Assembly: GCF_003334255.1 (NCBI RefSeq)
Contig: NZ_QOWU01000152.1
Length of the DNA stretch: 1,703 nucleotides
DNA from: Escherichia coli
Lineage (GTDB): Bacteria > Pseudomonadota > Gammaproteobacteria > Enterobacterales > Enterobacteriaceae
Direction: 5' to 3' (one strand)
In this document: positions 457-503 of the stretch, one piece after another
Layout of the letters: every line of letters starts with the position of its first letter
How positions within the stretch are numbered: position 1 is the stretch's first letter
Notes under the pieces: generated by a model
The model's input: only the letters and a program-made list of their open reading frames with translations
The model's database searches: none
Told to the model about the DNA's origin: nothing
Position numbers and translations under genes: made by a program

Positions 457-503
457 GGGAATGTCTGAGTGCGCGTGCGCGGTCCGACATTCCCACATCC
501 TGT
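457..503 (+). other. Stem-loop followed by ATCCTG (candidate oriT-like nick region, MOBP-style)
   Basis: GGGAATGTC (457-465) pairs with GACATTCCC (486-494), a 9-bp stem with a 20-nt loop. It is followed after 2 nt by ATCCTG|T (497-503), resembling the YATCCTG|Y nick core that sits 3' of an inverted repeat in RP4-type oriT. A 6-mer match alone is weak; the arrangement is the evidence. Confidence 0.25.

Follow-up and report, generated by a model that had tools for sequence, protein, structure and literature searches.

The question raised by this locus is whether a short inverted repeat followed by an ATCCTG motif, at positions 457-503 of the 1703-base stretch of DNA analyzed here (the window), belongs to an origin of transfer and, if so, which helper plasmids would recognize it. 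A preliminary description had read it as a possible orphan oriT, resembling the nick region of RP4 and other MOBP plasmids. Our analysis indicates that the segment 428-512 (+ strand) is very probably a complete, relaxase-less copy of an I-complex oriT, of the IncB/O and IncK/Z allele and with R64-type architecture, lacking nikAB and residing on a 1546-bp replicon of the pKL1/Col(MG828) type. The segment is 94-96% identical to large conjugative plasmids and, judging from these comparisons, the plasmid can probably hitch a ride with a co-resident I-complex helper.

The elements originally pointed out can all be read directly from the letters: the 9-bp stem pairs GGGAATGTC (457-465) with its perfect complement GACATTCCC (486-494) and is followed, after AC (495-496), by ATCCTG (497-502) and T (503). 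This stem makes up the outer portion of an 18-nt inverted repeat, 457-474/477-494, which is imperfect (83% complementary). Folded as single-stranded DNA, the + strand of 425-515 reaches -23.8 kcal/mol (z = -4.3), and none of 200 shuffled sequences folds as well. Perfect 9-bp stems with a loop of up to 40 nt occur in 19% of first-order Markov sequences of the size of the window; a stem followed by ATCCTG within 12 nt was found in none of 600 simulated sequences. The hexamer alone is uninformative, as had been suspected, being present at 4 sites in the window where 0.67 are expected. Its count was dropped as evidence, the three other sites lying in unrelated contexts, at 805-810, 1441-1446 and 1687-1692 (minus strand): the one at 805-810 sits inside palindromes upstream of repA and bears no relation to transfer. 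The decisive evidence for an oriT is homology, not chance statistics.

Among a spread of plasmid matches, conjugative plasmids of 85-120 kb share 94-96% identity with window positions 428-518. Two of these, an IncI1/B/O and an IncK2/Z plasmid, both assigned to MOBP and MPF_I, have the matching segment 17 bp ahead of where nikA (annotated there as mobA) begins, and a 2.7-kb relaxase gene, nikB, comes next; the same oriT-nikA-nikB-type arrangement is found in four further plasmids and in R64. The similarity to known oriTs thus goes well beyond the hexamer, region 428-512 being about 96% identical to the 85 bp upstream of nikA-nikB. Alignment with the B/O and K2/Z plasmids shows no difference in the hairpin or the nick core, which bears out their oriT-type nature, and the 2 mismatches both fall in the upstream box. 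To the left, homology extends no further than about 427, and to the right no further than about 508-512, indicating that the plasmid carries an 85-bp module and nothing else of the helper. An oriT of 85 bp, containing 17-bp and 8-bp inverted repeats and located directly upstream of nikA, has been described in B/O-type plasmids (PMC3817090). The unit presumed to be functional is about 85 bp long (428-512) and comprises an 8-bp repeat box which had been left out of the proposed element.

The R64 oriT is made of an 8-bp repeat, a 17-bp repeat and a nick core (PMC3817090, PMC4743918), and the window features the same architecture: an 8-bp repeat, a repeat of the 17-bp type and, 8 nt further, the nick core. 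The counterpart of the R64 8-bp repeat is the imperfect inverted repeat GTCGGGGT / GCCCTGAC at 432-450 (432-439/443-450, + strand), which forms a stem in the single-strand fold. The hairpin at 457-494 (+ strand) is equivalent to the R64 17-bp inverted repeat, as indicated by inverted-repeat search, folding, covariation and identity to IncB/O and IncK2/Z plasmids. The 17-bp repeat is known to form part of the NikA site (PMC3817090), and the nick-proximal arm 479-494 would, by analogy, correspond to 'repeat A', the predicted NikA-binding arm. The nick region, ACATCCTG|TCCCG at 495-507 (+ strand), was defined by its invariance among variants and by the MOBP consensus. By the same analogy the nick is predicted between G502 and T503, 8 nt from the end of the hairpin arm at 494, and the + strand would leave 5'->3' from 503. 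The attribution to a MOBP-type nick holds: plasmids encoding NikB are typed MOBP, and CATCCTGT (496-503) fits the sequence (C/T)ATCCTG(C/T) (PMC3772185). Alignment to R64 reveals the same box and the same nick core, CACATCCTGTCCCG, also found in B/O plasmids, with a hairpin which differs in sequence, yet is still complementary. The NikA proteins of a B/O plasmid and of R64 are 60% identical, most differences being located in the N-terminal half.

Constraints on secondary structure were evaluated on 16 distinct copies of this oriT type, from conjugative, pKL1-family and small rolling-circle plasmids. Pairing is maintained in 94.5% of the cells, against 31-47% in controls with slid partners. Within the hairpin (457-494) 92% of the cells are paired and compensatory double changes are seen in 9 of the 17 pairs; the 8-bp repeat (432-450) is invariant, 99% of its cells being paired, and neither CACATCCTG nor the CCC of the nick region changes in any of the 16 variants. 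This is the pattern that would be expected of a protein-recognized hairpin setting specificity beside a catalytic core.

Two observations concern other plasmids. The same NikA, WP_001291058.1, is encoded beside two different hairpins (L014 as compared to L001 and L002), with either GGGAATGTC or GCATTTGTC as outer stem and a common inner GTCCGAC, from which it would seem that NikA recognizes the arm by its inner part, changes in the outer stem being tolerated. A 195-kb IncFIB plasmid of Salmonella Infantis (L017, NZ_CP121069.1) contains, at 604-685, an I-complex-type oriT with an altered downstream core (ATCCTGCCCCC), a TnpB gene nearby and no nikA beside it: this is an orphan oriT on a megaplasmid.

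The window itself corresponds to a single 1546-bp circular plasmid wrapped round by 157 nt, so that 1547-1703 (+ strand) appears as a direct repeat, a second copy of 1-157. Positions 1-1546 are 100% identical to the E. coli plasmid pYLMB98b (NZ_CP073928.1), and 343 PLSDB records cover at least 80% of the window. Identity to the cryptic plasmid pKL1 (NC_002145, replicon type Col(MG828)) is 95.7% overall and 100% in the rep region; from the backbone and RepA shared with NC_002145, the pKL1/Col(MG828) family can be identified as the home of this plasmid. Six differences separate the wrap-round copy from 1-157 (at 1624, 1628, 1646, 1658, 1688 and 1691), all of them T->A. NZ_CP073928.1 agrees with the first copy throughout, and the relatives examined show none of the six changes. 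These seem to have arisen in sequencing, in assembly or when the window was constructed, and not to be biological; the minus-strand ATCCTG at 1687-1692 is created by one of them.

The sole credible gene in the window is repA (907-1383, + strand), the product of which is a pKL1-type replication initiator of 158 aa with a helix-turn-helix (Pfam HTH_36, 3.5e-8, and a weak RepL match); the DNA of the gene coincides with the pKL1 rep region at every position. About 90 bp upstream, at 774-821, nested palindromes are built on TGTCGCATCC / GGATGCGACA and include a 12-bp perfect repeat (797-808/810-821). The Rep protein of pKL1, an origin located upstream of rep and 16-bp perfect repeats have been described (PMC3832669), and the palindromes probably are a RepA operator or origin repeats as reported for pKL1. 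A scan of the window against Rfam returned just a chance-level miRNA match, at 764-829. In the left third of the plasmid, otherwise unannotated, a perfect 10-bp hairpin with a 14-nt loop, CGGGATCACC / GGTGATCCCG, is found at 301-334, and positions 88-261 have a counterpart, at 92% identity, in an IncN plasmid of Klebsiella (100 kb). This counterpart lies between ddp1 and a rep gene of small-plasmid type, with IS26 adjoining, and is presumably a captured small-plasmid remnant.

As anticipated, no relaxase gene is present: the longest ORF of the 1546-bp plasmid encodes 158 aa, a helix-turn-helix protein, and none of the eight ORFs tested against NCBIfam and Pfam matches a relaxase or a MobC/NikA (ribbon-helix-helix) protein. 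This makes the oriT an orphan. In PLSDB, the record with the same sequence as window 1-1546 is classified by MOB-suite as 'mobilizable', with no relaxase listed.

A second orphan oriT, of the ColE1 type (bom), faces the first one at 617-676 on the minus strand. Region 617-681 matches thousands of mobilizable ColE1-like plasmids of 3-7 kb at 92-100% identity. The minus strand 676-617, GGGTGTCGGGGCGAAGCCCTGACCCAGTCACGTAGCGATAGCGGAGTGTATACTGGCTTA, differs by 1 nt over 60 nt from pEC881_4, a ColE1-like plasmid with mobC, mbeB and mbeD beside its oriT, homology stopping right after CTGGCTTA. Varsaki et al. are said to have placed, in 2003, the ColE1 nick at CTGG|CTTA; at the same motif in the window, the cut is predicted to fall on the minus strand between positions 621 and 620. 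The group to which this oriT belongs, MOBHEN, is now called MOBP5. The fold of the ColE1-type oriT as single-stranded DNA is not distinctive (z = -1.1). From the two facing oriTs, opposite strands would leave.

The two oriTs are framed by a 24-nt inverted repeat, the box GGGTGTCGGGGyGAAGCCCTGACC, whose left arm (428-451, + strand) and right arm (653-676, minus strand) are 96% complementary and have 201 nt between them; the right arm, the box of the ColE1-type oriT, was recognized by inverted-repeat search and alignment. The repeat exists because the same box forms the outer end of both oriTs. A miniature transposable element bounded by the 24-nt repeat was considered and dropped, each arm being the outer box of a separate oriT. 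The beginning of the box, GGGTGTCGGGG (428-438 and 666-676), is very similar to GGGTG/GTCGGG, given in PMC5935869 as the nick sequence of CloDF13; by this likeness, the box might be the target of a third type of relaxase.

The I-complex hairpin is not constant within the plasmid family. The rep sequence is 100% identical in the window plasmid, pKL1 and a third plasmid, L010, whereas the hairpin segment 456-495 is just 68-70% identical: three intact alleles are thus found on one backbone. Their distribution was assessed by counting the PLSDB records containing the hairpin-plus-nick segment of about 61 nt. The window (B/O) allele is present in 406 records, 326 from conjugative and 80 from small plasmids; the pKL1 allele in 340, 126 conjugative (at about 93% identity) and 214 small; the L010 allele in 339, only 18 conjugative and 321 small. 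A closely matching allele is therefore common on conjugative plasmids for two of the three, and rare there for the L010 type. The latter, GCAAACGGAATA...TATTACATTTGC, also carried by L012 and L013, has two mismatched pairs in the stem and is the commonest allele on small plasmids; its scarcity on conjugative ones may point to an under-sampled or lost helper.

These observations led us to a tentative proposal, which we hold with rather less than even confidence: the family may carry a 'docking cassette' of two convergent orphan oriTs, I-complex and ColE1, within a shared 24-nt box, repeatedly swapping the I-complex hairpin alone (at least three alleles) and so tracking the circulating helper relaxosome. 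The swapped segments are bounded by the conserved box and the nick core, and swaps could accordingly result either from an exchange with the helper over short homologies or from recombination catalyzed by the relaxase at the nick. The family offers a clear natural case of a constant backbone on which oriT alleles are switched.

Following the R64 model, NikA of the helper would bind the nick-proximal hairpin arm 479-494 and position the NikB relaxase, and the + strand would be cut after ATCCTG, at 502/503. NikB, held on the 5' end, would then pilot the strand through the type IV secretion system of the helper; the two inverted repeats would enter last, where they may serve termination and recircularization. 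The ColE1-type oriT (617-676) would open, on the other strand, a second route, via MbeA-type relaxases of co-resident small Mob plasmids. From sequence identity, the helper is expected to be an I-complex plasmid (B/O, K, Z) rather than an IncP one.

Encounters with such a helper may be infrequent. In complete E. coli genomes the window allele is found in 341 records from 323 genomes, about a quarter of the records being small plasmids, so that at most 18 genomes have two carriers and co-residence with the cognate helper is the exception. Sequence similarity alone is, moreover, no guarantee of function: pKPN2, which has an R64-like oriT, was reported not to be mobilized by R64drd11 (PMC4743918).

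The direct involvement of IncP helpers (TraI/TraJ of RP4), a corollary of the likeness to RP4 put forward at the outset, appears very improbable to us. The inverted repeat does end 8 nt from the predicted nick, and Furuya and Komano are said to have noted, in 1991, the same repeat-nick spacing for both RP4 and R64. Moreover, the sequence (C/T)ATCCTG(C/T), matched by CATCCTGT, is the one required by RP4 TraI (PMC3772185). Beyond this 8-nt core, however, little likeness to RP4 is left: comparing by eye the RP4 30-mer GGGCCTACTTCACCTATCCTGCCCGGCTGA (PMC3772185) with the window, 4 of the 8 bases upstream of ATCCTG agree and little does downstream. The hairpin, which carries the specificity for the accessory protein, is identical to that of I-complex plasmids instead, and the matches listed for the 91-nt segment are all I-complex plasmids or small enterobacterial plasmids. 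Flanks unlike those of RP4, together with an I-complex hairpin, make IncP unlikely as a direct helper. The hairpin could also be thought to serve plasmid maintenance, as a single-strand initiation site, a transcription terminator or a target for relaxase-mediated recombination resolving multimers, a reading to which we give hardly any credence. It forms a stable hairpin in single-stranded DNA, and recombination between repeated R64 oriTs is attributed to NikB with NikA (Furuya and Komano 2003, cited in PMC5714925), which makes a role in multimer resolution conceivable when a helper is present; such a role, however, needs the helper relaxase anyway, and would add to an oriT function rather than replace it. 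The stem is not followed by a T-run, and hence looks unlike an intrinsic terminator, and what conjugative plasmids share with the window is exactly the oriT, not a replication or termination element.

A relic, that is an oriT fragment acquired by recombination, devoid of function and passively carried, is improbable as well, if somewhat less so than the two readings just discussed. It would agree with the finding that most host genomes are without a plasmid of the same allele; in strain MB98, host of the identical plasmid, the one partner record looked at, the neighboring pYLMB98a, is IncF/MOBF. Col(MG828) relatives whose oriT is similar are in some cases typed as non-mobilizable, and the Col(MG828)/pKST21 family has been regarded as 'only transferable by vertical inheritance' (PMC8148099). 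Decay, however, would not produce three different intact alleles on near-identical backbones, nor is it apparent in the sequences: the module covers the same 85 bp delimited as oriT in PMC3817090, the nick cores of the small-plasmid copies are unchanged apart from two single substitutions, the arms of the hairpin are still complementary in every allele, and about 359 PLSDB records keep the entire double-oriT module. A complete orphan I-complex oriT is, therefore, the interpretation we favor.

This reading bears on a 1.5-kb family which is among the commonest small plasmids of E. coli and which at least one paper calls non-transferable; searching the literature for pKL1 or MG828 together with oriT, we found no paper describing the oriTs of this family. 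Two intact orphan oriTs would place it in the 'hitcher' class; its predicted movers are, acting directly, plasmids of the B/O, K or Z groups, or else a Mob plasmid of the ColE1 type in combination with a conjugative one. Such elements are already part of what is known of plasmid mobility, and the overall view is unchanged.

The closest known system is the I-complex oriT itself (prototype R64; IncB/O, IncK and IncZ plasmids; NikB and NikA), which has in common with the window the box, both inverted repeats and CACATCCTG|TCCCG as nick core. In IncB/O and IncK2/Z plasmids every base of the hairpin is the same as in the window, while the hairpin arms of R64 differ, with compensatory changes. In contrast to I-complex plasmids, the oriT of the window has no adjoining nikA or nikB and is carried by a 1.5-kb theta-type replicon. 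Similarly, 617-676 (minus strand) is almost identical to the ColE1 bom/oriT up to the CTGGCTTA nick motif, and the ColE1 oriT shares the GGGTGTCGGGG...CCCTGACC box with the I-complex oriT, whereas the mbe/mob genes of ColE1 are missing from the window plasmid.

Among mini-plasmids the nearest parallel is pBuzz, reportedly described by Moran and Hall in 2019 as a 1982-bp rolling-circle plasmid. Like the window plasmid, it is devoid of a relaxase and features two inversely oriented oriTs, one of which is the same B/O allele. The two differ in replicon, ColpVC with a rolling-circle Rep as opposed to pKL1 RepA, and in the second oriT, since both those of pBuzz are of the I-complex, while that of the window is of the ColE1 type. 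The pBuzz-like plasmids L007 and L008 also have two I-complex alleles in inverse orientation, and L007 carries the hairpin allele of the window with 2 differences in the loop. Two reports state that pBuzz, which has no mob genes besides its two oriTs, is efficiently mobilized by a co-resident B/O plasmid (PMC9282650, PMC11389934) and, in the second of them, that it acquired the oriT of the B/O plasmid.

Another precedent is pEC156, a ColE1-type plasmid with orphan F-type and R64-type oriTs, which thus has, as the window plasmid does, two orphan oriTs for two helper systems: its R64-type oriT is mobilized by R64drd11 and transfer is lost upon deletion of the oriTs (PMC4743918). Replicon and oriT pair are different, and its I-complex allele is R64-like rather than B/O. 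The same concept is found in the oriT mimics of the S. aureus pWBG749 family, where small plasmids carry oriT subtypes matching those of their helpers (PMC8136818), although sequences, relaxase family and host phylum are unrelated to those considered here. Plasmids with orphan oriTs (pOriT) are a recognized class (PMC12282955), and the window plasmid likewise has an oriT while lacking a relaxase, a coupling protein and a secretion system. In conclusion, this mini-plasmid joins an orphan oriT of the I-complex to an orphan one of the ColE1 type, which is an arrangement of a known kind.
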